A DNA stretch of 11,498 bases from a virus (Duplodnaviria; Heunggongvirae; Uroviricota; Caudoviricetes). Positions 1 through 11,498 of this stretch are shown piece after piece. Location: the IMG/VR virus record IMGVR_UViG_2698536395_000021; one strand, given 5' to 3'. The notes beneath the pieces were generated by a model. The model saw nothing but the letters and a program-made list of their open reading frames with translations. It searched no databases and was not told the DNA's origin. A program made the position numbers and the translations under genes. Position 1 is the first letter of the stretch, and each line of letters starts with the position of its first letter.

Positions 1-351
1 GCCTGCGATGCCCTGCAGATGGCGCTGTGGCGGCGTAAGAGGCCCCGGAACGTTATCGTTCACACGGACCGTGGAGGCCAGTACTGTTCAGCAGATTATC
101 AGGCGCAACTGAAGCGGCATAATCTGCGTGGAAGTATGAGCGCAAAAGGTTGCTGCTACGATAATGCCTGCGTGGAAAGCTTCTTTCATTCGCTGAAAGT
201 GGAATGTATCCATGGAGAACACTTTATCAGCCGGGAAATAATGCGGGCAACGGTGTTTAATTATATCGAATGTGATTACAATCGGTGGCGGCGGCACAGT
301 TGGTGTGGCGGCCTCAGTCCGGAACAATTTGAAAACAAGAACCTCGCTTAG
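1..351 (+). CDS. IS3-family transposase OrfB (DDE integrase core), C-terminal part; 5' end outside window
   Basis: Frame is open from base 1; the listed ATG at 19 is internal. Translation ...[55 protein letters not shown]...[19 protein letters not shown] matches the conserved C-terminus of IS3-family OrfB (IS2/IS3/IS600 pattern; IS600 assignment from memory). Confidence 0.9.
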
Positions 352-381
352 GCCTGTGTCCATATTACGTGGGTAGGATCA
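1..381 (+). mobile_element. Right end of an IS3-family insertion sequence (IS600-like), cut by the window edge; terminus placed at ...GTGGGTAGGATCA (381)
   Basis: Seen: transposase C-terminus in frame 1 from base 1; sequence 369-381 GTGGGTAGGATCA resembles the IS3-family right terminus (reverse complement of the TGATCnTACCCA left-end consensus, recalled from memory). GC-richer than the downstream cassette. Exact IR length not determined. Confidence 0.8.
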
Positions 382-502
382 CGCAGGGGTCGGCCCATTT
401 GAGCTTCAGATAGGAACGTTTGAATTCCTTTCACAAAATACATCACATACTGAACGTGAACATTCCCACTTTGATCTTAAGGCCAAAAAGTATGCAGGAC
501 TA

Positions 503-2221
503 ATGATTTTTAGGGATAGCTTGAGAGTATTACCTTATGGTCGAGTAGATAATGATTTCTTCCAGATAGAAGAAAGACGTTCATGGAATGCAGGGCGATA
601 TTATTGGTCTAATAGAAGGATTTTTGGTTATATTGGAATTACTCAATCCAGTAATAAAGAGCTGAAAGATAAGTCGGGGAGAGAGGGATTCATAAGAAAC
701 CAGGCTGCAAGAGAACTGAAAACTATTATATCTAATTTGTTAACTGAACTTGCTGATAGATTTTTTGGTTCACGTTCTGATGACCGTAAAGAGCTTTTAG
801 AACAAGTTAAGCGTGAAAAAGAGTTAAGAAAATCTGCTCAACAACAAGCTCGAAAATCAACACAAAAAAGTTTTTCAGAAGCTTTGAAGAATCAGACACC
901 AGTTCTTGATGCTTCCTTGGAGGCTGTTAAAAGGCTGAAAACTAAGCTTGATAAAACTGATGGTTCGTTAGATTTAAACTATCTTAAAATTATAGACAGT
1001 GATCTTACAAACTTAGATGCGTTGCGCAGTGAAATTAAAACGCCTATCAAACCTCCAAAACTTGGAATGTATGAAGAGAAATATAGAGACTACAGAGATA
1101 AATTTAATGAGTTCTCTGCGTATATTCTACAAATGAAGTTAGCAATTAATAAACTTGATTCTGAATTAAATAAACTTGAGCCTTCATTGTCAGCGAAAAA
1201 TCACCTTGAAAAAAATCAAGGTATTATTAATTCTAAACTAACTAAGTTTAATAACACGATAGAGGAGAAGATACATTCTCTTTTAAAAAAATGGGCCGAT
1301 GAAATAAAGGTTGATCGAAGTGATTATTATGCTAAAACTATATCAGTTGTTGATTCAATAGATAATGATTCACAAATTGAAAATGTGTTTAATTTGCTCG
1401 ATAGTTTATATGTTGAGTCAGTTGATACCCTAACTTTCAAATATCAATCAATAATAAAAGGTCTCGATAGATTATTTGAAGGTATAAACTTAGATTCAGC
1501 ATTCTCATTATCTGAAGAAGAACGCTCATATTTTGAAGAAAAAGCTAAAAGTTTAAACGCGCTTGCACAGTTAGGTATTAGTGTTGAGATAATATCTCAT
1601 GAACTTGAAGAAATGGATTCTATGGTAACCAGAGGACTAAACTCTCTTCCTACTTCTGTAAAAGAACACCCTGGTTTTTCATTGGCGTTAAATGCTCACA
1701 GATCGCTTACTCAACAAATACGTTTCTTATCACCTTTGAAAATATCAGGTTATCAATCCAGGCAGAGAATAACTGGAAAAAATATCATGGATTATGTCCT
1801 GAAGTTCTTTGGGGAGCGTTTCGAACGGCAACGAATAACTATTGAATTTAGTGAAGAGTTTAAGCAAATCGCAATAACAGATATACCATTAAGGATCTAT
1901 CCTGTTTTTACTAATATTATCAACAATGCAATGTATTGGGTCAGTCTGTCAAATAATAGGCTCATAAAGATTGGTTTTGTGAATTCTTTGGTTATCATAG
2001 CAAATTCTGGTCCGGCAATTGATACCGATGATATCCCGCGACTATTTGAACTATTTTATAGCAAAAGAGCAAATGGACATGGGGTAGGTCTGTATCTATG
2101 TCGAGAAAACCTTGCTGTTGCACATCATAAAATATGGTATTCAGAACCTGATGAAGGCGATAACTATTTAATAAAAGATGGCGCTAATTTTGTGATCCAG
2201 TTCAATGGAGTGGAGTTCTAA
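503..2221 (+). CDS. Soluble histidine-kinase-like protein: N-terminal domain, long coiled coil, DHp-like His-box, C-terminal HATPase_c; possibly N-terminally truncated by the upstream IS
   Basis: 572 aa ORF, AGGA 4 nt upstream of ATG. No obvious TM segments. Coiled-coil-like region (KELLEQVKREKELRKSAQQQARK...). His-box-like ISHELEEM. HATPase_c motifs in order: N-box VFTNIINNAMYW, G1-like IANSGPAID, F-box-like LFELFYSKR, G2 GHGVGLYL. Motifs seen directly; domain assignment is by comparison with the histidine-kinase consensus from memory. Confidence 0.8.
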   Translation: MIFRDSLRVLPYGRVDNDFFQIEERRSWNAGRYYWSNRRIFGYIGITQSSNKELKDKSGREGFIRNQAARELKTIISNLLTELADRFFGSRSDDRKELLEQVKREKELRKSAQQQARKSTQKSFSEALKNQTPVLDASLEAVKRLKTKLDKTDGSLDLNYLKIIDSDLTNLDALRSEIKTPIKPPKLGMYEEKYRDYRDKFNEFSAYILQMKLAINKLDSELNKLEPSLSAKNHLEKNQGIINSKLTKFNNTIEEKIHSLLKKWADEIKVDRSDYYAKTISVVDSIDNDSQIENVFNLLDSLYVESVDTLTFKYQSIIKGLDRLFEGINLDSAFSLSEEERSYFEEKAKSLNALAQLGISVEIISHELEEMDSMVTRGLNSLPTSVKEHPGFSLALNAHRSLTQQIRFLSPLKISGYQSRQRITGKNIMDYVLKFFGERFERQRITIEFSEEFKQIAITDIPLRIYPVFTNIINNAMYWVSLSNNRLIKIGFVNSLVIIANSGPAIDTDDIPRLFELFYSKRANGHGVGLYLCRENLAVAHHKIWYSEPDEGDNYLIKDGANFVIQFNGVEF

Positions 2222-2222
2222 T

Positions 2223-3971
2223 ATGACAGTGGCAAATTATAATTCTCTTGTCCAGAAAACTTTCTGCGAAAATGCAATTCGTTCCGTTGTCATGATTGAT
2301 GACGATTTTCTGACGTATTCTGAATCAATCAGGGCGTTGAATAACGAAGTTGATTTAGACTACAACAAAATTGACTCATCTAAACGAGCCGCTACTCTTG
2401 AGAGCTTTTTTCAATCTAAAAATATGATTTGTGATGTTGACAATGGTTCTGTTAATTTCGATGTGGATCGGATTAGAAAATCAGATCTTATTATTGTAGA
2501 TTATCATCTTGATAATAATGCACCTGATAAAACACTTAAACTATTACAAGATTTGAAAGACTCCGATCATTTAAATATGATTGTAATATATACTAGAGAG
2601 AATTTAGAAACGGTTTGGATGCAGATATCATCGACTCTCAAAGGTGCTCTGGATATCAACAGCTTGATCATTGACTACGATAATGAAGATGTCCAAAGTT
2701 ATTGGGAAGACGTTGTATTACCGAACTTAAATGATAATGGTAATAAAGCTCTCACAAGAGATGAAATAATAGCCTATATTAAAGACAGTAAGCCTTGTAG
2801 AAGAATTAAAAGATTAATACATGATGATGCTGTGTTGGAGGATCAAAAGGATAAAAACTTCATTGCAAAAATGATTGCAGAATATGCTGTGTCTAGAAAT
2901 GCAATTATTTCTAGCAACACATCTGGCAATGTCATTCGGGGTGATGAAAGCGGAGTAAAATGGATTCAATGTGGTAATATCTTTGTCTCCCTATTTCATA
3001 AGGTTCAAGATGATCATGAAAACGATGGAGATAGGATTTGGCAAACTCTCAATGATTCTCTCATTGAATGGAAACCATCTTATTATCAGTTAATAAAATC
3101 TGAAATTCAGAATGCAATCGAAGCTGAGGCTTTATCTTTTGTAAATCATTTGGCTAACGATCATTACGGTCAAGCTGCGTGGTTAAATGAGATATTAAAA
3201 TCAGACTCGCCTGATATTAGATGTAGAAATATTGACTTTGTATTTGGTAATTTATCAGAAGAGCTTTATCAAAGACTTAAAAATAATAATACGCTGGATG
3301 AATTTATCAAAAGTGTTTTTGATAGCTATTCAAATGAATACGCTAACAGCGGAGTTGCTGCATTGCTCCAATATTGCTCTTCAAAAATGGATCTGCCATC
3401 AAATAATGATACTTATCACGAAATGTATCATGCTTTAAATATGAATTTGTCTTCAAAGAATTTTGAAGATGGTCATATTTCTACTGGCACTATTTTCTTT
3501 GATACAGAGTCGAACAAATGGTATTTATGTGTATCTGCGGCATGTGATTTGGTTCCTACTCAGGGTAACGACCCTCACCATGTAAGATTAAGTCCGCACA
3601 GGCTCATTAAAGTTCTGGAGCTTTTTAACGCCAGTCAGAGTAAAGCATTGCCATTTGCTGAACATTCGAAATATATATATGTAATGCATAAAAATCAAAG
3701 AAAATATCTCTCTATTTTCGAAGGGGATAAAACGCTTCCTGTTGTTGATTATATGGTGGTGTTGAATCATGGAACAACAGTTGATGGCGAAGAAAAAAAT
3801 ATTATTTCTGCCGTGTTTTTAAGTAATATGGATGGCAACGTGCAAAATGTTCCTGTCCGACTCAAACTTAAATCTCAACTGAGAACTGGTTATGCAGAAA
3901 GATATCAGGCTATAGCGTCTCAGTATAGCTCAAGGATTGGTGTGGATTATGTATCAATGATGCTACCATAA
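2223..3971 (+). CDS. Receiver (REC)-like domain protein with a large C-terminal domain of unknown function; no recognisable DNA-binding output
   Basis: Start moved from the ORF-track ATG at 2205 to ATG 2223 (MTVANYNSL...): it lies 1 nt after the upstream TAA (2219-2221) and 7 nt after GGAGTGGAG. The N-terminal ~130 aa fits a receiver fold: VVMIDDD (acidic pair), DLIIVDYHLDNN (candidate phospho-acceptor Asp), NMIVIYT (conserved Thr position), then a Lys. The remaining ~450 aa show no motif I can assign. Confidence 0.8.
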   Translation: MTVANYNSLVQKTFCENAIRSVVMIDDDFLTYSESIRALNNEVDLDYNKIDSSKRAATLESFFQSKNMICDVDNGSVNFDVDRIRKSDLIIVDYHLDNNAPDKTLKLLQDLKDSDHLNMIVIYTRENLETVWMQISSTLKGALDINSLIIDYDNEDVQSYWEDVVLPNLNDNGNKALTRDEIIAYIKDSKPCRRIKRLIHDDAVLEDQKDKNFIAKMIAEYAVSRNAIISSNTSGNVIRGDESGVKWIQCGNIFVSLFHKVQDDHENDGDRIWQTLNDSLIEWKPSYYQLIKSEIQNAIEAEALSFVNHLANDHYGQAAWLNEILKSDSPDIRCRNIDFVFGNLSEELYQRLKNNNTLDEFIKSVFDSYSNEYANSGVAALLQYCSSKMDLPSNNDTYHEMYHALNMNLSSKNFEDGHISTGTIFFDTESNKWYLCVSAACDLVPTQGNDPHHVRLSPHRLIKVLELFNASQSKALPFAEHSKYIYVMHKNQRKYLSIFEGDKTLPVVDYMVVLNHGTTVDGEEKNIISAVFLSNMDGNVQNVPVRLKLKSQLRTGYAERYQAIASQYSSRIGVDYVSMMLP

Positions 3972-4042: not shown

Positions 4043-4459
4043 TTATTTTTGTTTAAGTCTTCTAAGCTTCATGCATTCTAATGAGAATAATAATAGAGTT
4101 GTGCTGTATATAAAGCCAGAGTTAGTTAATAACTTTAAATTTAATGCTTCAGGATTTTCACTGAGAAAGTGAAAGGCATAAACTAAGTATACAGCTAAAG
4201 TAGCCGTTCCAATTGTTGGTCCAATATCGCCTTGATCATGAGGTTCAAGGTTTACATTGAACTTGAAGATTAGCCATTCAAATCCCCAAGTAAAAAAAAC
4301 AACTAATATCATGGCTGCGAATAATTTCGCGATGTTATCTGCTGATGGATTCATCAGAACAGATTGTTTCTGAAAAAATTCACAAAGTGAGAGTCCGAAA
4401 AAAATAAAAAAAAGTGGTCTGGAACTAAATTTTTCAAAAACTTTGAATAGGGTTTCCAT
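4043..4459 (-). CDS. Small hydrophobic membrane protein (about 4 predicted TM helices), function unknown
   Basis: 138 aa ORF with ATG start, 38 bp downstream of and co-directional with the integrase. Hydrophobic stretches PLFFIFFGLSL, LFAAMILVVFFTWGFEWLIF, ATLAVYLVYAFHF, FIYSTTLLLFSL. AT-rich like the adjacent cassette. Confidence 0.6.
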   Translation of the reverse strand: METLFKVFEKFSSRPLFFIFFGLSLCEFFQKQSVLMNPSADNIAKLFAAMILVVFFTWGFEWLIFKFNVNLEPHDQGDIGPTIGTATLAVYLVYAFHFLSENPEALNLKLLTNSGFIYSTTLLLFSLECMKLRRLKQK

Positions 4460-4497: not shown

Positions 4498-5727
4498 TTA
4501 GGCTACCAGAGCATTTGATCTTTGAGCTTGAACGTAATCACTCCACCATTGCATCAAACTCTGTCGCTCTATCAGATATTCTGCACGATTGTATGCTGCG
4601 ATAATTTCATCTTTTTTCGAGTGGGCAAGCGCTGCCTCAAGAACTTCAGCTCTGAATTTACCAGACTCCTCTGCCGCTGTTCGTGCAATAGAACGCATAC
4701 CGTGAGCTACAAGCTCGCCTCCGAACCCCATTCGGATGATAGCTGCGTTGGCTGTTTGTTCATGCATATGATTAAGAGGCGCTTTTATGCTGGGGAAAAC
4801 CCATTCTCTATGCCCACTTATTGATTTCATTAATTCAAGGATGCGCAAAGCTTCTTTACTCAAAGGAACTTTGTGAAGCTTTTTCATTTTCATGAAATCA
4901 GCAGGAATGTTCCAAATGCTGTTGGTTGTATCAATATCAGACCACCTTGCGCGAACGGCTTCACCCGGACGAACCCATGTCAACAATTGCCATTCAATTA
5001 GCATACGTGTTTCCAACCGGATTGACGCATTCGTCAAAGATTCCATAAACCTTGGCAATTCGCTTGGGGGAAGGGCAGGCATATTTTGCTTTTTTGGTTT
5101 ACTGAATCTTTGACCAAGGTTGTCAGCCGGGTTGAACTCAATAAGTTCTTCAGTAGCTGCCCACCGGAAGATTTCATTCAGACGTGAAATGATACGGCGT
5201 AGAGTTTCCAATACGCCTCGTTGCTCAATAGGATCAAGGTGTTGTTTTAAGAGCTTAGGTCGGATCTCATTGATAGGGACATTACCCAGACCGGGAAAGA
5301 CATTTCTCTCTAAGCTGCGCCAGATGTCTGCTGCATGGTCTTGTGAGATACCTGATGTCTTTACCTTCTCATCTAACCATTTCCGCGCTACGGCTTGGAG
5401 AGTGTGCTCAGTAGCACTCTTTAATGCCTTCGCCTTATCGTTGTTATGGATTTGGGGATCAACACCATTTGCCAGAAAGGAGAGATATTCATCACGTAAG
5501 GCTCTGGCTCTTGCAAGGGTAAGGTGAGGATATGTCCCAAGGCTCATTTTGGTTCTTTTCTTGCTCACGGGTACTGCATACCTGAAATACCAATTTTTCT
5601 TGCCTCCTTTCGCCAAAGGAGCGATTCGTAGAATCAGACCATCACCGTCAAACAAGTTGATTTCTTTATCGGCTGGCTTGGTGCTTTTGATTTCAGTGTC
5701 AGTGAGCTTCTTAGCGATTTTTGCCAT
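4498..5727 (-). CDS. int: P4-type tyrosine integrase (IntA/CP4-57-like)
   Basis: Start taken at the ATG at 5727 (MAKIAKKLTDTEIK...), which has GAGG 8 nt upstream and aligns with the N-terminus of E. coli IntA as I recall it; the ORF-track start at 5769 has no SD. Matches include DGDGL, ADIWRSLERNVFP, ALRILELMK, HGMRSIARTAA, LAHSKKDEIIAAYNRAEYLIERQSLMQWW. Confidence 0.92.
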   Translation of the reverse strand: MAKIAKKLTDTEIKSTKPADKEINLFDGDGLILRIAPLAKGGKKNWYFRYAVPVSKKRTKMSLGTYPHLTLARARALRDEYLSFLANGVDPQIHNNDKAKALKSATEHTLQAVARKWLDEKVKTSGISQDHAADIWRSLERNVFPGLGNVPINEIRPKLLKQHLDPIEQRGVLETLRRIISRLNEIFRWAATEELIEFNPADNLGQRFSKPKKQNMPALPPSELPRFMESLTNASIRLETRMLIEWQLLTWVRPGEAVRARWSDIDTTNSIWNIPADFMKMKKLHKVPLSKEALRILELMKSISGHREWVFPSIKAPLNHMHEQTANAAIIRMGFGGELVAHGMRSIARTAAEESGKFRAEVLEAALAHSKKDEIIAAYNRAEYLIERQSLMQWWSDYVQAQRSNALVA

Positions 5728-5824
5728 TTTGGGACCCTCGGTTTTTGGACCCTTCTTAGTGGGTCCCATTCAGGGTGCCATAACTCGTAGTTCTCAGCAA
5801 TTCTCACTGGACGACAATAGACGT

Positions 5825-5856
5825 AAAAAAGCCCGCAGAGCTTGTGCTGTGTGGGC
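5825..5856 (-). terminator. Rho-independent terminator on the minus strand, between the ssrA-like core and the integrase
   Basis: Minus-strand RNA reads GCCCACA-(loop CAGCACAAGCUC)-UGCGGGC then UUUUUU. Stem has 4 G-C pairs, one A/C mismatch, then 2 more pairs. The plus strand has the A-tract before the hairpin, so it is minus-specific. Confidence 0.5.
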
Positions 5857-5891
5857 TTAGTAGACTTCATTGAACTTCAAACAACTAAAAA

Positions 5892-5916
5892 GTGGAGCTG
5901 GCGGGAGTTGAACCCG
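5892..5916 (-). other. Attachment-site core: 25-bp copy of the 3' end of tmRNA (ssrA), without the rest of the gene
   Basis: Minus strand reads CGGGTTCAACTCCCGCCAGCTCCAC, identical to the E. coli ssrA T-arm/acceptor 3' segment as I recall it. The CCA end is replaced by TTTTT, and upstream sequence does not continue as tmRNA; no 5' acceptor partner within 400 bp. Lies about 165 bp upstream of the P4-type int start. Confidence 0.7.
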
Positions 5917-5975
5917 TGCCCGAGCAATGCTTAACCCATTGAATAACAATGCATTCTCTGTTTAAAAATGCCTCA

Positions 5976-5997
5976 AGTGCATTTTGAGTGCATTTTC
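5976..5997. repeat. Perfect tandem direct repeat of an 11-bp unit (AGTGCATTTTG / AGTGCATTTTC)
   Basis: Seen directly at 5976-5986 and 5987-5997, about 60 bp from the att core on the prophage side; a related AATGCATTCTCTG lies at 5948-5960. Confidence 0.5.
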
Positions 5998-6025
5998 TGG
6001 TCCTCTCTTGGTCCATACAACGAGA

Positions 6026-6967
6026 TTAAGTGGCCACTTGAAGTTCCGGCCCTGCGTCGCTATCTATTAACGGCTGACCTTGAACCATTTTTTCAACCAT
6101 ATCGTTTGAAGGATATGGAACCCCGAGCTCAACCGTATTAGGGTTGGAACGGTGGGTTTCAACAAACGATGTTCCGTTCCATTTTTTTGAAAGGTAGATT
6201 ATTCCTTCAAAGGCTGCAGGGTCCTGTTTCTGAGACTCTAAGATCATGTGGAAGCCACGACGTTCTATCCCGCGTAAGAAGCTGGAGAAGCACTCCCTCA
6301 GTAATTCGTCATCCAAATCCTTGAACTTGATACCCTGCGCAAGAAACTCGAAATAATTAAGAATATATAAAAGGCCATTGATGGCATCCCTGTACTCATC
6401 GGGGACCTTCATATTCTTGTATTCTTCTTTGTCTGGGTTGCAGCGCCACTCTGATAGTTCTTGTGGTACATAACGCATGCCCCGATAGAATTTGGTGCTG
6501 TTCCGAAGCTGTTTTTGGTACTCCGGGCTTGTTCGGGTGTTAATGATCATGTTCAGCGTGTGGGACCTGCGCGTGTTAGCAGCGGACGTTATGCATTGTA
6601 TCCACCATCCCATTCCAACGAGCATTCCTGTAACCATGATCGAAAGCGATGTTTGATAGGCCGGTGTGTACCTTAAAATTGCATATCCAATAAGGATAAT
6701 CACATAACAAACAGTGCTGAACATAGGAAGAAATTCTGCAGTGTCTGGATAGCGTTTTTTGATGAAGCAGAAGATAGAAGATATTGCTGCACCAGAACCA
6801 GCAATGACGATCAGCCAATCAATGATGGCGATGCTAAATGGTAGTTTTCCAGGGTAGATATAAGTAAAAAGTGCTCTGACAATCATCATTAGAGCAAAAA
6901 TTGTAGCGCTGACGTTGACTAATGTTCTCGCCATCTTATTGATTCCTATAACAAAAGACCTCCGCAT
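6026..6967 (-). CDS. Membrane protein: N-terminal about 4 TM helices plus about 180 aa soluble C-terminal domain; function unknown (prophage cargo or moron candidate)
   Basis: 313 aa ORF with ATG start (alternative Met 12 codons in, MARTLVNV...). Hydrophobic segments ATIFALMMIV, AIIDWLIVIAGSGAAISSIFCFI, MFSTVCYVIILIGYAIL, SIMVTGMLVGMGWWI, then a charged C-terminal domain. Sits between the lambda-type int 3' end and the att core. Confidence 0.75.
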   Translation of the reverse strand: MRRSFVIGINKMARTLVNVSATIFALMMIVRALFTYIYPGKLPFSIAIIDWLIVIAGSGAAISSIFCFIKKRYPDTAEFLPMFSTVCYVIILIGYAILRYTPAYQTSLSIMVTGMLVGMGWWIQCITSAANTRRSHTLNMIINTRTSPEYQKQLRNSTKFYRGMRYVPQELSEWRCNPDKEEYKNMKVPDEYRDAINGLLYILNYFEFLAQGIKFKDLDDELLRECFSSFLRGIERRGFHMILESQKQDPAAFEGIIYLSKKWNGTSFVETHRSNPNTVELGVPYPSNDMVEKMVQGQPLIDSDAGPELQVAT

Positions 6968-7012
6968 GGGAGGCCTTATTGTGCTAATGGAGGTTTGTTT
7001 TAAAATTTTAGG

Positions 7013-7098
7013 TTGTAGTTAACCTTCACCGAAACCTACGGTCAGTGTCTTTTTCATAGTGTTCACTCCAGTTGTGGTGCTTCGCCGATACCTACGTT
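7013..7098. repeat. Imperfect direct repeat of about 30 bp (TTGTAGTTAACCTTCACCGAAACCTACGGT ... TTGTGGTG-CTTCGCCGATACCTACGTT), copies about 57 bp apart
   Basis: Seen directly; the 17-bp cores CTTCACCGAAACCTACG (7024-7040) and CTTCGCCGATACCTACG (7080-7096) differ at 2 positions. Lies in the 450-bp AT-rich non-coding gap between the 313-aa gene start and the int stop. Confidence 0.5.
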
Positions 7099-7416
7099 AA
7101 GCTCTTGAAAAGTAAAAAAACATAAAAGTTTTAGAATTTGTGGAGCACAGGATAACAGTTTGTACTGGGACTCATCAAGTACTATCAGTGTCCTTGCACT
7201 GTCCTAGTGAAAATTTATTGCAATAAAGTAACTTACGTGAAGTCAAGAAATATATTTGCACTCCATTTCTTGCTATGATGTAAGTTATTGATTTTAATTA
7301 AATTTACAATTACCTAAATGAACTATGGAAACTATCAATAACATAGATGATAGCTCATTTCACAAAAAGCAATGGTAGACTCATTCTTAATTTTCATCAG
7401 CCTTAAGCCTATGTAC

Positions 7417-8592
7417 TCAGCTTGACACAACATTTATAGACGTTTTACCATCGTATTCAGCCAGGTATTTACCGTAATTGCGGAACAGCATTTCCGGCCC
7501 CTTATGCCCCATCTGCCCGGCAAGCCAGAAAAGGTTTACACCCTGGCTAATGTGTCTGGTGGCGAATGTGTGGCGCGTCTGGTACGGGTTACGGTAGCGC
7601 ACACCAGCTTTTTTCAGGGTCGGCACCCATGCTTTTTTACGGATAGCGTCGGCGTTCGTCCAGGGTTCTCCCGTTTTCGGATCGCTGAATATGAACTCAC
7701 TTTTCATAAAGGTGTATTGCTTCTGCGCCTGCAGGGCTGCCAGCGCCTCACTGTTCAGCTCCACCTTACGGGTACCGGCTTTTGTCTTGGTGCCTTTAAG
7801 TACCCCTACGACACTGGCCGCCTGAACGTGGGCTGTGTTCGCGATGGTGTCGAGATCAGCCCAGCGCAGCGCGCACAGTTCTGAGCTCCGCAGACCTGTA
7901 TTGAAAGCAAAGCGGAACAGGTTTTCCCATTCCCTGTACCTGCAGCTCTGGTAAATGGCAAGGGTCTCCGCTGGCGTGAACGGGTCAACCTCGTAATCGT
8001 CGGCGCTCGGGCTACTGTCGATCACGTGGTACCGGCTGGCGCTGACGAGGGTTACCGGGTTAATGGTCAGCAGGCCATCCGTAACAGCTTCATCAATGGC
8101 GCTGCGCAGAAATGACAGGTTATTCCTGATTGTTTTCAGCTTAGTTTTTCGGCTGGCTATCCAATTTTTTAGTATCGCAGGCGTCAATTCTGTTACATGT
8201 AGTTTATGTAGTTCTGATAGTGCTGATAGACATTTTTCGTAACCGCCAATGGTTGACGGCGACAGATTACGGTTTATGCAAATTTTCAGGTATTCATCAA
8301 GATAGGACTTAATATTTTTGGTTTTCTTTACTACACCGAATAACTCCAGTTTTTTGGAATTGGGGAAATATTTCGCATATTCAAACGTTCCGCTGGCGAT
8401 CTGATTTTGTATCTCCCCTAGCAGGCGCTCAGCATATTTTATACCACGTGTATTTGCCTCAAGCCGAGATAGGGGCTCCCTGCAAAGAACCCCTTTATAT
8501 GTGAAAGTGATAACTAGTGTTGAAGCAGTTTTATGCTTACGAATAGTTACTCCTCTTGGCAGAGATAATAATCCTTGTTCTTTCTTGCCCAT
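7417..8592 (-). CDS. int: Lambda-type tyrosine integrase (phage integrase family)
   Basis: Start taken at the ATG at 8592 (MGKKEQGLLSLPRGV...), with AGAGG 7 nt upstream; the ORF-track start 8619 is 9 codons further up. C-terminal catalytic region ...LRWADLD...RHTFATRHISQGVNLFWLAGQMGHKGPEMLFRNYGKYL has the conserved R/H/Y pattern. 5' end overlapped by an excisionase-like gene, as in lambdoid xis-int. Confidence 0.9.
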   Translation of the reverse strand: MGKKEQGLLSLPRGVTIRKHKTASTLVITFTYKGVLCREPLSRLEANTRGIKYAERLLGEIQNQIASGTFEYAKYFPNSKKLELFGVVKKTKNIKSYLDEYLKICINRNLSPSTIGGYEKCLSALSELHKLHVTELTPAILKNWIASRKTKLKTIRNNLSFLRSAIDEAVTDGLLTINPVTLVSASRYHVIDSSPSADDYEVDPFTPAETLAIYQSCRYREWENLFRFAFNTGLRSSELCALRWADLDTIANTAHVQAASVVGVLKGTKTKAGTRKVELNSEALAALQAQKQYTFMKSEFIFSDPKTGEPWTNADAIRKKAWVPTLKKAGVRYRNPYQTRHTFATRHISQGVNLFWLAGQMGHKGPEMLFRNYGKYLAEYDGKTSINVVSS

Positions 8593-8756
8593 TTTGAAAC
8601 CTCTATTAAGTCGACCCAACGCTCTTTAACCCCGTCGACTTTTAATACATGTACCCCTTCTTTCCATATTCCTCTTTGTATCCGTTTGTTAACGGCATCA
8701 ACCGTTTCTCCCGCGTTGCGGCAGTAGGTTGATATAGGTACGCAATCCAGCCCCAC
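8547..8756 (-). CDS. xis: Excisionase-like small DNA-binding protein (Xis family, tentative)
   Basis: 69 aa ORF starting with GTG, overlapping the int start by about 45 nt. The segment GETVDAVNKRIQRGIWKEGVHVLKVDGVKERWVDLIEVSKWARKNK resembles the lambda Xis winged-helix region (ETVRRWVRE...VKDGREYLF) as I recall it. Start codon uncertain. Confidence 0.6.
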   Translation of the reverse strand: MGLDCVPISTYCRNAGETVDAVNKRIQRGIWKEGVHVLKVDGVKERWVDLIEVSKWARKNKDYYLCQEE

Positions 8757-8764
8757 AGTTCACC

Positions 8765-8911
8765 TCACACAACATTCAGCCCACGACAGTGACACCACAC
8801 TTCAAACATTCGTTTCACAATTTCACGACAGTAGAAACCGTCAACATCTCGCGTCAGGTCATAGCGATTGCCGAATGTCTTGCGAACCCATAACTCAAAA
8901 ACCGTATGCAT
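8765..8911 (-). CDS. Hypothetical 48-aa Cys-rich small protein
   Basis: Hand-translated: MHTVFELWVRKTFGNRYDLTRDVDGFYCREIVKRMFEVWCHCRGLNVV. ATG sits 3 nt after the upstream gene's TGA, same strand as the operon. Below the ORF-track length cutoff; no similarity evidence. Confidence 0.3.
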   Translation of the reverse strand: MHTVFELWVRKTFGNRYDLTRDVDGFYCREIVKRMFEVWCHCRGLNVV

Positions 8912-8914
8912 GTA

Positions 8915-9157
8915 TCACCTCCGTTGCATTGCGCGCAATTTTTTCAGGTGCTTTTCCTGCTCAGTGTCCGCCAGGATTTTGCAATACTGCTGGTGGTCAA
9001 TATGTTCGAACAGGCAGTTGAACTCACCAATGCATACCCGCCCGGAGTGTCCGTCCATACGTCGAAAGAACACAGAGCGGTCCGTACAGCGAGTAATCAC
9101 CACAGGGTATCCGGCCCTGTCCGTGTATATTTGCCCGCGTTGAATAAGTGCGAACAT
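8915..9157 (-). CDS. Hypothetical small phage protein (80 aa)
   Basis: ATG start; co-oriented and close-packed with the surrounding minus-strand operon. Preferred over the overlapping plus-strand ORFs 8868-9143 and 8906-9190 on operon context only. Confidence 0.5.
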   Translation of the reverse strand: MFALIQRGQIYTDRAGYPVVITRCTDRSVFFRRMDGHSGRVCIGEFNCLFEHIDHQQYCKILADTEQEKHLKKLRAMQRR

Positions 9158-9161
9158 GAGA

Positions 9162-9245
9162 TTATCCCCAGCGGCAAATCGAAAAAATAATCAGCGCAAT
9201 CGATATTGCAACACCTACAATTGCAAATGCTTCAGGCCAACTCAT
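9162..9245 (-). CDS. Candidate 27-aa hydrophobic micro-protein (single TM helix)
   Basis: Hand-translated MSWPEAFAIVGVAISIALIIFSICRWG. Its ATG overlaps the upstream stop (ATGA at 9245-9242), and its 3' end TGGGGATAA supplies a GGGG SD for the next gene. No other evidence. Confidence 0.3.
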   Translation of the reverse strand: MSWPEAFAIVGVAISIALIIFSICRWG

Positions 9246-10105
9246 TGACTCACCTCCTGCGGCGGTTCTGGTAGAGGCATCCAGTGGGTTACATCGCATT
9301 CAGGGATGCTGATATCATCACCAAGCCACCCTTGACCTTCAGACCAGCATTGCACGTAATACCCGTATTCTGTGTTCACTACGCACCACTGTGCGTCGTT
9401 CGGCATTAGCTCACTACAGCTTATCCAACCATCCGGAGTTACCGGAACTTGCGGAATGGCTGTCTGCTCTCGAACGTCATTAGGCGCTATAGGTTCTGCT
9501 GCCAACTGACTGGCATATTTGTTAATGGTAACGATAAGCTCTTGCTCAGCCTCATCCAGATAATCACCGATACCTCGCCTGTCACCGTCAAAATCATCGA
9601 AATCGGCACGAATCTTGGCAACCTTCTGGATTGCGGACAACACCTCACTAGGAATTACCGGATAGTTGGTTGACGTTTCCGCGATTTCCCGAAAATTATT
9701 GGTTGACGAATTCTTATTTTCCCGAAAGTTTCTGGCCTGAAGCATGGCGGCGCGGCAGGCATTCCAGCCAGTAGCGTAATATTTCGCATCCTGCCAGCTC
9801 GTTTGTACATTTGAGTACGCTTTTTCCTCTGTCATGGCCTCTGGTATTGATGCCGGTGCAATTCGTGGCAGGCCGATATATAGTGGTACATCTCCCGGCT
9901 CCATCGAATTGACGGGCCAAATATACGCATCACTACCATGGTTAATGAGCGCAATCCCCGAAGTATCGATGATGCCAAATGGCTCCGCTGTCAATGCAGT
10001 CAATGCAATTTCATAAGCCCGACGCTCAATATTGTCTCGCACGTCCAGGCTGCTTATGCGCTCTTTGATTTCTTTAATCAGTTTCTTATCGGTGAAAGTG
10101 GTCAT
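9242..10105 (-). CDS. Lambdoid prophage early-region protein (287 aa); Cys/Trp-rich C-terminal module, possibly DUF551-like
   Basis: ATG start with AAGGAG 6 nt upstream; stop of the upstream gene 1 nt before the ATG. C-terminus ...WISCSELMPNDAQWCVVNTEYGYYVQCWSEGQGWLGDDISIPECDVTHWMPLPEPP is reminiscent of a module common in enterobacterial prophage early genes (from memory; needs HMM confirmation). Confidence 0.75.
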   Translation of the reverse strand: MTTFTDKKLIKEIKERISSLDVRDNIERRAYEIALTALTAEPFGIIDTSGIALINHGSDAYIWPVNSMEPGDVPLYIGLPRIAPASIPEAMTEEKAYSNVQTSWQDAKYYATGWNACRAAMLQARNFRENKNSSTNNFREIAETSTNYPVIPSEVLSAIQKVAKIRADFDDFDGDRRGIGDYLDEAEQELIVTINKYASQLAAEPIAPNDVREQTAIPQVPVTPDGWISCSELMPNDAQWCVVNTEYGYYVQCWSEGQGWLGDDISIPECDVTHWMPLPEPPQEVSQ

Positions 10106-10106
10106 C

Positions 10107-10436
10107 TCACTCTCCTTTGATGCGAATGCCAGCGACGCGTAGTGCGTGTTCTAAGTCAATCAGGCAAAGCCAGCTGCCATTTTCTTTAGGTATCATGACA
10201 TGTCGCTTATCAGCATTTATTGGGTGCCCATATCGAAGGTCGTAGCGAGTCGGTAATTGAACTTCCCTCGCTTCCAGTTCTGTAATGCGTTTGTTTTTAG
10301 CTTCTAGTTCATCCAGCAGCACCAGCACAACCTGCGGTGTGACTTTCATACGAAACGCAAGCAATTTTTGCGGCGTTGCCACGACTTTTATTGCTTCTGC
10401 CGCCTCACGCAGTGCCTGATAGTCAATCTTGCTCAC
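10107..10436 (-). CDS. Hypothetical lambdoid early-region protein (109 aa); possibly Ead/Ea22-like
   Basis: GTG start with AGGAGG 6 nt upstream, overlapping the upstream stop (GTGA). Coiled-coil-like LLDELEAKNKRITELEAREVQ. Family name is a guess from memory. Confidence 0.65.
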   Translation of the reverse strand: MSKIDYQALREAAEAIKVVATPQKLLAFRMKVTPQVVLVLLDELEAKNKRITELEAREVQLPTRYDLRYGHPINADKRHVMIPKENGSWLCLIDLEHALRVAGIRIKGE

Positions 10437-10672
10437 TGGTTGCCTCCTTTACGGATCTGCGCTGCGATGCGCGAAAAAAAAGCCTCCCGCGTATGGCTGT
10501 TAAGAGCTGGCGCGAACGCCGCGTTAAGAACGGCAGCATCACAGCCGTCATCGATATAGAGCGCAATTTTTTTCTCCAGGCGCGCTTTGGCTTCCTGCAA
10601 CTGCATACCCCGGCACGCACGCGGGATATAATCAGCAATTTGAGCGATAGCTTTTTCGTTCTGTTTAAACAT
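10433..10672 (-). CDS. Hypothetical phage protein (79 aa)
   Basis: ATG start; overlaps the upstream gene by 8 nt and the downstream gene by 4 nt. Amino-acid composition looks natural, unlike the overlapping Arg-rich 120-aa ORF 10423-10785. Confidence 0.6.
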   Translation of the reverse strand: MFKQNEKAIAQIADYIPRACRGMQLQEAKARLEKKIALYIDDGCDAAVLNAAFAPALNSHTREAFFSRIAAQIRKGGNQ

Positions 10673-10868
10673 GCTTCACCTCGATAGGCTTGATGGTGTC
10701 TAACAGCAGTCGGCGGCGCGTATTTTCTGCAAAATGGCGGCGTCCAGTTTCTTTGTGGTAAAACTCGTTTTTGCCAACGACCCACATCCGCTCTGTTTGG
10801 TGCAATTTTTTTACCTGCGGGCCATCTTTGGTGATCACGGTACCGGTATGGGTTTTTACGATTGTCAT
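10665..10868 (-). CDS. Hypothetical phage protein (67 aa)
   Basis: ATG at 10868 overlaps the upstream gene's TGA (ATGA at 10868-10865). Confidence 0.6.
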   Translation of the reverse strand: MTIVKTHTGTVITKDGPQVKKLHQTERMWVVGKNEFYHKETGRRHFAENTRRRLLLDTIKPIEVKHV

Positions 10869-11498
10869 GCCACGACCTCTTCGAATTTCAACTCCAATTG
10901 GTCACCCCAGATTTCACATGATTCGGAACACGAACCAGTATCAAACCGCTTGGCCAGCACCATCGCCTGATACAAACTTCTGTAGTCGCTGTCGGCATAC
11001 ATTCTGGCAATCCCGTCAAGCGTCAGGTGACCACGGTACATAACGTCTTTACCTGTTCTGCGATGACCATCCCTGACGTGTTTGCCTGTAACCAGTTCAT
11101 TAAAAACCCGCATCAGACCGGGTTCGTCTTTACATGCAAGCCCCAGCTTTTGCGTTGACTTTTTGATGCAAAAAACACAGTTCCCGAGGTGCTCCGGGAT
11201 TTGCAAATCAAAAGGTTGTTTTTGCCACCACCGGATAACATCCGACTTATCAAAATCTGACAGCTCGGCAAGATACCGGACGCCAGGTTTCGGTTTCAGC
11301 CTACGGGGTTCGTCCGCACGAATACCGAGCCATGTGATGTAATTCCCTCGCCCAAAATGGTCATCGCAATATTTCGTGAAAGGGGTGAGTTTTAGCCTGT
11401 CAGTACAGAATGCGCCGCCGATGTATGAGGTGTACTGGCAATAGCGGCCACTACCATTTGTTCTTTTTTTAAGCAGCCATCTGATGATATTTTTCCCT
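10865..11498 (-). CDS. PAPS-reductase-like (phosphoadenosine phosphosulfate reductase family) phage protein, C-terminal part; N-terminus beyond the window
   Basis: The ORF-track TTG at 11206 is only the first start codon in the window. Hand translation shows the same frame open with no stop from 11497: ...GKNIIRWLLKKRTNGSGRYCQYTSYIGGAFCTDRLKLTPFTKYCDDHFGRGNYITWLGIRADEPRRLKPKPGVRYLAELSDFDKSDVIRWWQKQPFDLQIPEHLGNCVFC... LGIRADE and the following W-rich and Cys motifs fit the PAPS reductase family as found in lambdoid prophages (from memory). Confidence 0.6.
   Translation of the reverse strand, partial: GKNIIRWLLKKRTNGSGRYCQYTSYIGGAFCTDRLKLTPFTKYCDDHFGRGNYITWLGIRADEPRRLKPKPGVRYLAELSDFDKSDVIRWWQKQPFDLQIPEHLGNCVFCIKKSTQKLGLACKDEPGLMRVFNELVTGKHVRDGHRRTGKDVMYRGHLTLDGIARMYADSDYRSLYQAMVLAKRFDTGSCSESCEIWGDQLELKFEEVVA

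Follow-up and report, generated by a model that had tools for sequence, protein, structure and literature searches.

A kinase-like gene in an ssrA-proximal island stump of Escherichia coli, very probably cut by an IS3-associated deletion

The DNA analysed here (the window, 11,498 nucleotides of virus record IMGVR_UViG_2698536395_000021) carries, just downstream of the right end of an IS element, a 572-codon open reading frame for a kinase-like protein (positions 503..2221, plus strand), which raises the question whether this frame is a complete gene or the remainder of a longer one. A first-pass annotation of the sequence had placed the start codon at ATG 503, had found the frame open from there back to a TAG at 374-376 in the IS terminus, which leaves 42 sense codons, with stops in the remaining two forward frames at 400-402 and 411-413, and had suggested an N-terminal truncation. 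All these coordinates were reproduced, the two stops being TGA and TAG, respectively. There is no ATG, GTG or TTG among the 42 codons, thus 503 is the earliest possible start. The sequence AGGA lies only 3 nt ahead of this ATG, a poor Shine-Dalgarno spacing. By itself, the open stretch is weakly unusual (P = 0.03-0.08 based on composition), and 7.7% of shuffled sequences remain open.

The proposed truncation was borne out by a comparison with IS-free homologues, none of which starts at ATG 503; instead, these proteins are 988 amino acids long and remain colinear across the 42 codons ahead of that ATG. At least 13 proteins of 988-991 amino acids, from Salmonella, Klebsiella and Serratia, share 98-99% identity with the 614-residue conceptual translation from the IS end, over 100% of its length. 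BLASTP against a 988-residue homologue gave 606 identical residues out of 613, beginning at subject residue 376, and the 42 codons upstream of ATG 503 correspond to residues 376-416, with a difference only in the first, junction-spanning codon. ATG 503 itself is the codon for the internal Met-417. The sequence at 382..502 (plus strand) is therefore a startless coding remnant of ancestral codons 376-416, the annotated 572-residue 'ATP-binding protein' represents residues 417-988, i.e. the final 58% of a gene of 988 codons, and the lost part comprises residues 1-375. A three-way alignment of the DNA, with the intact locus of Salmonella and a derivative from E. coli that has no IS, puts the junction, which marks a deletion or recombination, at 381..382, where the last base of the IS element meets the ancestral gene inside codon 376. 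Identity with the Salmonella locus begins at 381/382, with an ambiguity of one base, as the A at 381 fits both the IS and the ancestral gene. It is the homology of the 42 codons, and not the openness of the frame alone, that leads us to regard the truncation as real.

The window is 100% identical to E. coli O26:H11 strain 11368 across 8221 bases, and at this identical locus RefSeq annotates an 'IS3-like element IS3 family transposase' with a programmed frameshift (-1, orfA/orfB). The window holds the right-hand 381 bp (1..381, plus strand) of this 1258-bp element, with only the 3' end of the transposase orfB, whose stop codon is at 349-351; in the O26 strain an internal stop interrupts the IS3 copy, which is annotated as a pseudogene. 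The element terminates in ...GGGTAGGATCA at 381, in agreement with the IS end given by the first-pass annotation, and its right inverted repeat spans approximately 343-381 (plus strand, ending ...GGATCA). The two inverted repeats are imperfect, about 39 bp long and of the TG...CA type (TGATCTTACCCA... versus TGATCCTACCCA...); they were missed by an inverted-repeat finder using 9-nt seeds and were recovered by pairwise alignment. Size and repeats (5'-TG, CA-3') are as expected for an IS3 of ~1.26 kb, and this copy shares with E. coli IS3 the orfAB frameshift transposase and outward promoter signatures, but it differs in having no 3-bp target duplication.

The flanks of the element bear on how the truncation arose. 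The first-pass annotation had proposed that the IS may have inserted into a longer ancestral gene, and the longer gene is indeed real and truncated at the IS. Were this a simple insertion, the 5' part of the gene would lie just across IS3, a 3-bp duplication would be present, and precise excision would restore the gene. A frame that stays open as far as the IS terminus fits such an event, and 3-bp target duplications are usual for IS3 and its family. However, the flanks read ...GTTATCT | IS3 | CGCAGG..., so that ATCT and CGC face each other with no 3-bp repeat, and the sequence to the left, at the identical O26 locus, is not the missing 5' part that the first-pass annotation proposed to look for but the 3' half of an oppositely oriented amylase pseudogene that resembles ygaQ, without colinearity across the IS. 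In K-12 and in strain 4588 the ygaQ-like gene runs ~1.15 kb further, with ileY, ypjC and ypjA beyond it. A query that combined the missing 5' part with the methylase gene preceding the intact homologue (see below) had no match among 5426 complete E. coli genomes, and no genome covered at least 80% of a chimeric query for a parental single insertion, composed of the IS3 right end and K-12 ygaQ sequence beyond the break. Moreover, the sole IS-less allele examined, that of O121 strain WL1277, joins the amylase fragment straight to the stub with extra flank bases gone. A simple insertion thus fails and is, in our judgement, highly improbable; the amylase left flank, the missing duplication and the absence of the 5' part together indicate a deletion or recombination junction. 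We read the lack of a duplication as a signature of such a junction and not as an argument against the identity of IS3. The WL1277 allele was also considered as the ancestral empty site, and this was rejected: in addition to IS3 it lacks 19-21 bp on the amylase side and 2-4 bp of the stub, and the loss of these extra bases points to a secondary deletion.

A gene that begins at ATG 503 in its own right, as a genuine short-form kinase gene with IS3 in intergenic DNA upstream, might be suggested by the intact 'ATP-binding protein' in RefSeq and by the 572-residue proteins annotated likewise in Salmonella, Klebsiella, Pectobacterium, Yersinia and Morganella. This has next to no probability, as the supposedly intergenic 121 bp ahead of the ATG encode part of the 988-residue protein, with 99% identity. 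The 572-residue call in Salmonella Bareilly is a start-site error, since the frame is open there over all 988 codons, and in Klebsiella CP141543.1 the gene is frameshifted near codon 304. We are highly confident that the window contains an ssrA-proximal island stump in which the kinase-like gene was cut by an IS3-associated deletion, leaving a fragment that is likely non-functional. The kind of event can be inferred as follows. In one E. coli lineage a large block would have been deleted, with a copy of IS3 at the deletion junction, either by recombination between two IS3 copies or by an IS3-mediated adjacent deletion. The block would have extended leftwards from codon 375 of the kinase-like gene to the middle of the ygaQ-like amylase pseudogene, and its loss would have removed the ATPase domain described below, the methylase gene, the upstream or promoter region of the operon, the remainder of the island and adjoining DNA of the chromosome. 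Downstream of IS3 this would have left a startless stub of 41 codons, followed by the first internal Met codon, from which gene callers report 572 amino acids.

What the deletion took can be seen in the intact loci, where the gene order is methylase, 988-residue gene, response regulator (RR)-like gene, a gene for 138 amino acids, integrase and tmRNA. The gene directly upstream of the 988-residue gene encodes a C5 DNA methylase, which is absent from the window, and since the two genes overlap by 20 nt they form an operon. Judged by sequence, the intact operon would encode the methylase, a 988-residue protein with HATPase_c_3, HEF_HK and HATPase_c domains, and a 582-residue Response_reg_2 protein. 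The methylase was the sole match of the module in PADLOC, where the kinase-like protein found none. The first-pass annotation had speculated that a sensor region was removed, but a recognisable N-terminal sensor input domain was not found in the full-length homologue. Instead, Pfam places a GHKL ATPase domain, HATPase_c_3 (PF13589), at residues 28-137, and 31 homologues show no variation in its motifs E32..N36, D61-N-G-C-G-M and G104-E-K-G-I-G. The lost region therefore appears to be a GHKL ATPase domain of the MORC/MutL type and no classical sensor. The domain occupies the position that a sensor usually has, in which the intact homologue differs from a classical sensor histidine kinase, and sensing of NTP by this N-terminal domain has been put forward as a speculation (PMC8011034). 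Over its first ~130 residues the intact protein also matches the N-terminus of the GHKL-ATPase-containing BbrUII/HgiDII restriction enzymes (NF050001, E = 1.5e-13) and, weakly, MutL. With 50 bits the NF050001 score is far under the 550-bit cutoff, so this similarity is limited to one domain, whereas the rest of the intact protein consists of a coiled coil and a histidine-kinase core. The domain that resembles BbrUII/HgiDII and MutL/MORC is precisely what the window copy lost.

The 572-residue remnant retains the tail of a middle domain rich in beta structure, a long coiled coil, a HEF_HK DHp domain (PF19191; 1568-1744, plus strand; 26.2 bits versus a cutoff of 24.1) and a HATPase_c kinase domain (PF02518; 1886-2161, plus strand; 44.6 bits versus a cutoff of 26.4), the profile of which also matches the catalytic domains of ThkA/TM1359-type sensor kinases in the PDB. 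The DHp domain contains a conserved histidine of the phospho-acceptor type (H782, codon at 1598-1600, plus strand), which together with its S-H-E-L-E motif is invariant in 31 homologues. Pfam detected no HATPase_c_3 domain in the window frame. The break and Met-417 are predicted to lie inside a beta-rich folded unit (approximately residues 309-465) and not in a linker; the AlphaFold2 model of the full 988-residue protein, which is of low confidence (pLDDT 60, pTM 0.31), was used with caution for this position.

The kinase-like gene belongs by its domains to the already described HEF_HK family. Together with Response_reg_2 proteins, this family forms two-component-like modules that are associated with C5 DNA methylases and with ATPases of the paraMORC type (Bellieny-Rabelo, Pretorius & Moleleki 2021, Genome Biol Evol, PMC8011034). 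The window genes match PF19191 plus PF02518 and PF19192, and are adjacent, as in these modules. According to the same study, the family is soluble, without transmembrane regions, and its predominant architecture is group 1, with HATPase_c_3, HEF_HK and HATPase_c, while 34 of 222 members form a 'group 2' with HEF_HK and HATPase_c and no N-terminal ATPase. The intact allele has the group 1 architecture, with the C5 methylase immediately upstream. The window copy has neither HATPase_c_3 nor the methylase and hence resembles group 2, a resemblance that exists because the IS3-associated deletion removed both. Since the window frame lacks HATPase_c_3 while its 99%-identical 988-residue homologue has it, the remnant would be a truncated former member of group 1 and not a natural short form. 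Our literature search on the HEF_HK/Response_reg_2 module found no experimental or biochemical work and no named defence system.

The partner gene is intact. It encodes a Response_reg_2 (REC-like) protein of 582 amino acids (PF19192; 2223..3971, plus strand), begins 1 nt past the stop codon of the kinase-like gene and has GGAG 7 nt upstream of its start. Fold searches with a model of this protein recognised only the REC domain; the C-terminal part of ~400 residues gave no convincing fold match and no sequence relative in the PDB, and a marginal PADLOC hit (E = 0.007) to a transmembrane model was discounted. Next come a gene for a conserved hypothetical protein of 138 amino acids (4043..4459, minus strand), located in the same gene order in the intact loci and without a family match in Pfam, PADLOC or NCBIfam, and a tyrosine integrase gene (4498..5769, minus strand; Pfam Arm-DNA-bind_3, Phage_int_M and Phage_integrase), which marks the ssrA-proximal end of the island. 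In related E. coli and Salmonella the tmRNA gene directly adjoins the integrase gene. The window holds the ssrA-proximal stump of an integrative island, here down to four genes. Like CP4-57 of E. coli K-12 it has its integrase gene by ssrA, and it lies between ssrA and the ygaQ-glaH-lhgO-gabD region. Its cargo is unlike that of CP4-57: a methylase/HK-like/RR-like module and, in the intact Salmonella form, a relaxase.

The remnant is not rare. It was present in 561 of 5426 complete E. coli genomes (~10%) at 95% identity or more, and in 560 of these at 99% or more. The identical junction between IS3 and the gene was found in 484 of the 561 carriers and is inherited clonally. Most carriers have kept both the 572-codon frame and the RR gene open. 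In some lineages the module is decaying further: strain 00_3305 has an IS600 inserted between IS3 and the ATG, an internal deletion from IS3 into the gene splits the frame in strain C3, and in O121 WL1277 a further IS interrupts the RR gene. A cluster of truncated RR proteins of 453 amino acids counts 1605 member sequences, versus 1966 in the intact cluster. Relative to the intact allele, the remnant differs by 6 non-synonymous and 4 synonymous changes and the Response_reg_2 gene by 3 and 7, respectively, in each case 10 differences and too few for a test of constraint.

Such retention could mean that the truncated module was exapted, with transcription out of IS3, from latent promoters or by read-through from the transposase gene, yielding a deregulated 572-residue kinase core and its REC partner that are still useful. 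The first-pass annotation had likewise raised an outward promoter supplied by the IS as an alternative. Both frames are intact and co-oriented with the transposase gene, a scan of 1-700 found no terminator-like site, and IS3 contains an exact match to the latent outward promoter signature TTTAAT, 15-bp spacer, TACAAT (256..282, plus strand, toward the truncated gene) described for the IS3 right end '3R(+)' (PMC12095673), as well as to a second outward promoter, TTGGTG ... CAATTT (300..330, plus strand), that PMC12095673 attributes to Charlier et al. 1982. IS3 has also acted as a mobile promoter elsewhere (Charlier 1982, by way of a citing paper). The DHp histidine and the ATP-binding kinase domain are kept, the RR gene has a good Shine-Dalgarno sequence of its own, and with the short group 2 architectures reported in the family, a form without the N-terminal ATPase could conceivably work. 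However, reporter activity from the wild-type 150-bp IS3 end was undetectable, and the right end contains a pause/termination-like element within its last 50 bp (PMC12095673). A scan of 352-520, which covers the stub, found no sigma-70-like promoter site, and a start at ATG 503 would combine the poor Shine-Dalgarno spacing with a methionine predicted within a folded domain. Independent disruptions occurred in several lineages, frameshifts or annotation artefacts account for at least some of the 572-residue or short-form entries elsewhere, and recent common descent explains the retention equally well. We therefore consider exaptation unlikely, and find it quite unlikely that the kinase core and REC partner, read out of IS3, act as a deregulated, methylase-independent signalling or defence module; if they did, such a module would be retained in ~10% of E. 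coli, including major non-O157 STEC serogroups. Most likely, the 572-codon frame is a non-functional pseudogene fragment, a reading based on the loss of the catalytic N-terminal ATPase, the native start and the promoter, and on the decay of partner genes in several sub-lineages.

What we see at this locus is routine IS-associated decay of a horizontally acquired island, and its main value lies in annotation and comparative work. The cluster of 572-residue 'ATP-binding proteins', with ~2000 member sequences, represents a gene fragment and deserves a pseudogene flag, and the same gene model recurs in other species, as in Salmonella Bareilly with its full open frame and in one frameshifted Klebsiella genome. 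Such entries can inflate the class without an N-terminal domain that has been reported for the HEF_HK family. For a functional study of the methylase/GHKL-kinase/REC module, an intact allele from Salmonella, Klebsiella or Serratia is suited, and the E. coli allele is not.

The first 381 nucleotides of the window, on the plus strand, are the right end of an IS3 element, as the first-pass annotation had proposed. The orfB transposase stop codon lies at 349-351, the IS3 terminus ...GGGTAGGATCA falls at 381, and at the same locus in E. coli O26:H11 str. 11368, identical to the window at every one of the 8221 bases compared, RefSeq annotates an 'IS3-like element IS3 family transposase'. There, IS3 is 1258 bp long, with imperfect inverted repeats that start with TGATC. 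This copy (4808-5970 of the O26:H11 11368 locus, L001) is annotated as a pseudogene with an internal transposase stop, as it is in strain 00_3305, thus IS3 is probably immobile in the lineage of the window. The same-junction copy in NZ_CP026085.1, labelled 'DH5alpha', is intact.

To the right of IS3 lies a kinase-like ORF of 572 codons (503-2221, plus strand), and an open frame upstream of its ATG had been taken as a sign of N-terminal truncation. Translation reproduced all coordinates: the frame runs from a TAG at 374-376 through 42 sense codons to the ATG at 503, and the other two forward frames are closed by a TGA at 400-402 and a TAG at 411-413. The 42 codons include no ATG, GTG, or TTG. 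By itself, this openness is weak evidence; its chance probability is 0.03-0.08 based on composition, and 7.7% of shuffles remain open. A protein search with a 614-aa conceptual translation begun at the IS end retrieved 988-991-aa proteins from Salmonella enterica, Klebsiella aerogenes, K. oxytoca, and Serratia liquefaciens, which are 98-99% identical across 100% of the query and have an additional N-terminal PF13589 domain. In a BLASTP alignment with an intact 988-aa homologue, query residues 2-614 matched subject residues 376-988 (606/613 identical, 0 gaps), therefore the 42 'upstream' codons correspond to residues 376-416, and ATG 503 to the internal Met-417. DNA identity with the intact Salmonella locus begins at 381/382, and the sequence to the left is all IS3. 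These alignments bear out the suspected truncation and show that the gene was cut precisely at the IS terminus, with loss of residues 1-375.

The lost part had been suggested to be a sensor region, which does not hold. In the full-length protein, Pfam recognizes HATPase_c_3 (residues 28-137), HEF_HK (772-830), and HATPase_c (878-969). The N-terminal domain contains invariant GHKL motifs (E32/N36, D61-N-G-C-G-M, and G104-E-K-G-I-G), is similar, at the domain level only, to the N-terminal part of restriction enzymes of the BbrUII/HgiDII type (E = 1.5e-13), and weakly resembles MutL. The missing domain is a MORC/MutL-type ATPase domain and not a classical sensor. A methylase gene is missing as well. 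The gene order in four intact loci is a C5 DNA methylase gene, overlapping by 20 nt with the 988-aa gene, then the 582-aa Response_reg_2 gene, a 138-aa gene on the opposite strand, and an integrase gene, with a relaxase farther upstream; a tmRNA gene adjoins the integrase in an intact locus and in a related E. coli. The window retains only codon 376 through the integrase, and lacks the methylase gene and the operon upstream region.

Bellieny-Rabelo et al. 2021 (PMC8011034) defined the 'two-component-system-like' HEF_HK/Response_reg_2 family, of which this gene pair is a member. Both C5 methylases and paraMORC ATPases have been connected with that family, and its predominant architecture is HATPase_c_3 + HEF_HK + HATPase_c (174/222 members). 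The intact allele has all sequence features of the family, whereas the window copy lacks the N-terminal domain and the methylase because those parts were deleted. No experimental characterization of the family was found in the literature, and PADLOC has no model for it.

A longer ancestral gene had been correctly suspected, but the event was a deletion and not a simple IS insertion into it. Across IS3, the identical O26 locus contains neither the missing 5' part nor a target duplication, both of which had been suggested as things to look for. What lies there is the 3'-terminal ~1.1 kb of a pseudogene for a ygaQ-like alpha-amylase, encoded on the opposite strand and with glaH-lhgO-gabD beyond it. 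The same amylase gene is ~1.15 kb longer in K-12 JM83 and in strain 4588, where it is followed by ileY, ypjC, and ypjA. The IS3 flanks at the O26 locus differ (left ...GTTATCT, right CGCAGG...) and lack a 3-bp duplication, thus the genes on both sides are truncated and mutually unrelated, the hallmark of a deletion whose junction is occupied by IS3. From general IS biology, two directly oriented IS3 copies may have undergone homologous recombination, or an adjacent deletion mediated by the IS may have occurred. The parental state occurs in none of 5426 complete E. coli genomes, neither as the methylase with the 5' gene part nor as an IS3 copy in ygaQ whose right flank is intact.

The remnant is probably non-functional because the ATPase domain, the native start, and the operon promoter are lost. 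An AlphaFold model of the whole 988-aa protein (overall poor, pLDDT 60) places the break and Met-417 within a beta-rich unit (residues ~309-465) of moderate local confidence, which is weak evidence against function. An AGGA lies just 3 nt from ATG 503. Other observations speak against its being dead: its ORF and the downstream response regulator (RR)-like gene remain open and run in the same direction as the IS3 transposase gene, a scan found no terminator-like site in 1-700, and two signatures of outward promoters that were reported for the right end of IS3 (PMC12095673) are present, TTTAAT-15-TACAAT at 256-282 and TTGGTG...CAATTT at 300-330. In that study, reporter activity of the wild-type 150-bp right end was undetectable, and its last 50 bp repressed transcription about two-fold. 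Compared to the intact allele, the remnant carries 6 non-synonymous and 4 synonymous changes, and the RR-like gene 3 and 7, respectively, divergence too small for a constraint test.

The remnant is present in 561/5426 complete genomes, in 560 of them at ≥99% identity and in every case on the chromosome; the carriers include O26, O103, O111, O121, O45, and O104:H21 strains. An identical IS3-gene junction is common to 484 genomes; one ancestral event passed on by descent explains this sharing. The locus shows three independent secondary decays: in O121 WL1277, IS3 is gone, as are 19-21 bp of the amylase flank and 2-4 bp of the stub (382-502), and another IS3-family element interrupts the RR-like gene; in strain C3, a deletion extends from within IS3 into the remnant; and in strain 00_3305, IS600 has inserted into the stub, the 121 bp that separate IS3 from the ATG. 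Among RR-like protein clusters, a truncated 453-aa form has 1605 member sequences versus 1966 for the intact 582-aa form.

The RR-like ORF ends at 3971 and has two candidate starts: ATG 2205 gives 588 aa and an overlap with the kinase-like gene, and ATG 2223, the RefSeq start, gives 582 aa, lies 1 nt past the preceding stop, and has GGAG 7 nt upstream; both lengths are found among database homologues. Past the island integrase, in 5770-11498, a DUF4760 gene (6026-6967) and the gene for a second integrase (7417-8619), both on the minus strand, are accompanied by early genes of lambdoid prophage type (DUF551 fragments, ead/Ea22-like, PAPS reductase-like); the arrangement resembles a tandem stack of mobile elements at the ssrA site. 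The window itself contains no tRNA or tmRNA gene. In NZ_CP026085.1, the same island stump lies directly beside ssrA, unlike in K-12 JM83, which has the intact ygaQ-ileY-ypjC arrangement, and the DH5alpha label looks doubtful.

'ATP-binding proteins' of 572 aa are annotated in further species too. In Salmonella Bareilly (loci L009, 3993-6983, and L010, 2247-5237), an open frame spans all 988 codons and aligns without a change of frame, thus the 572-aa call is a start-site error, which leaves 1.25 kb as 'non-coding'. In Klebsiella pneumoniae CP141543.1 (locus L015, 1734-4719), the gene has a frameshift near codon 304. Therefore, some 'N-terminal-domain-less' family entries are artefacts or pseudogenes. 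The E. coli fragment model appears to have been copied onto intact or broken genes elsewhere, and such models may make the published 'group 2' (N-terminal-less) architecture class look larger than it is. The case is ordinary IS-associated decay of a horizontally acquired module, and its chief value lies in correcting the annotation and in a caution for comparative studies.
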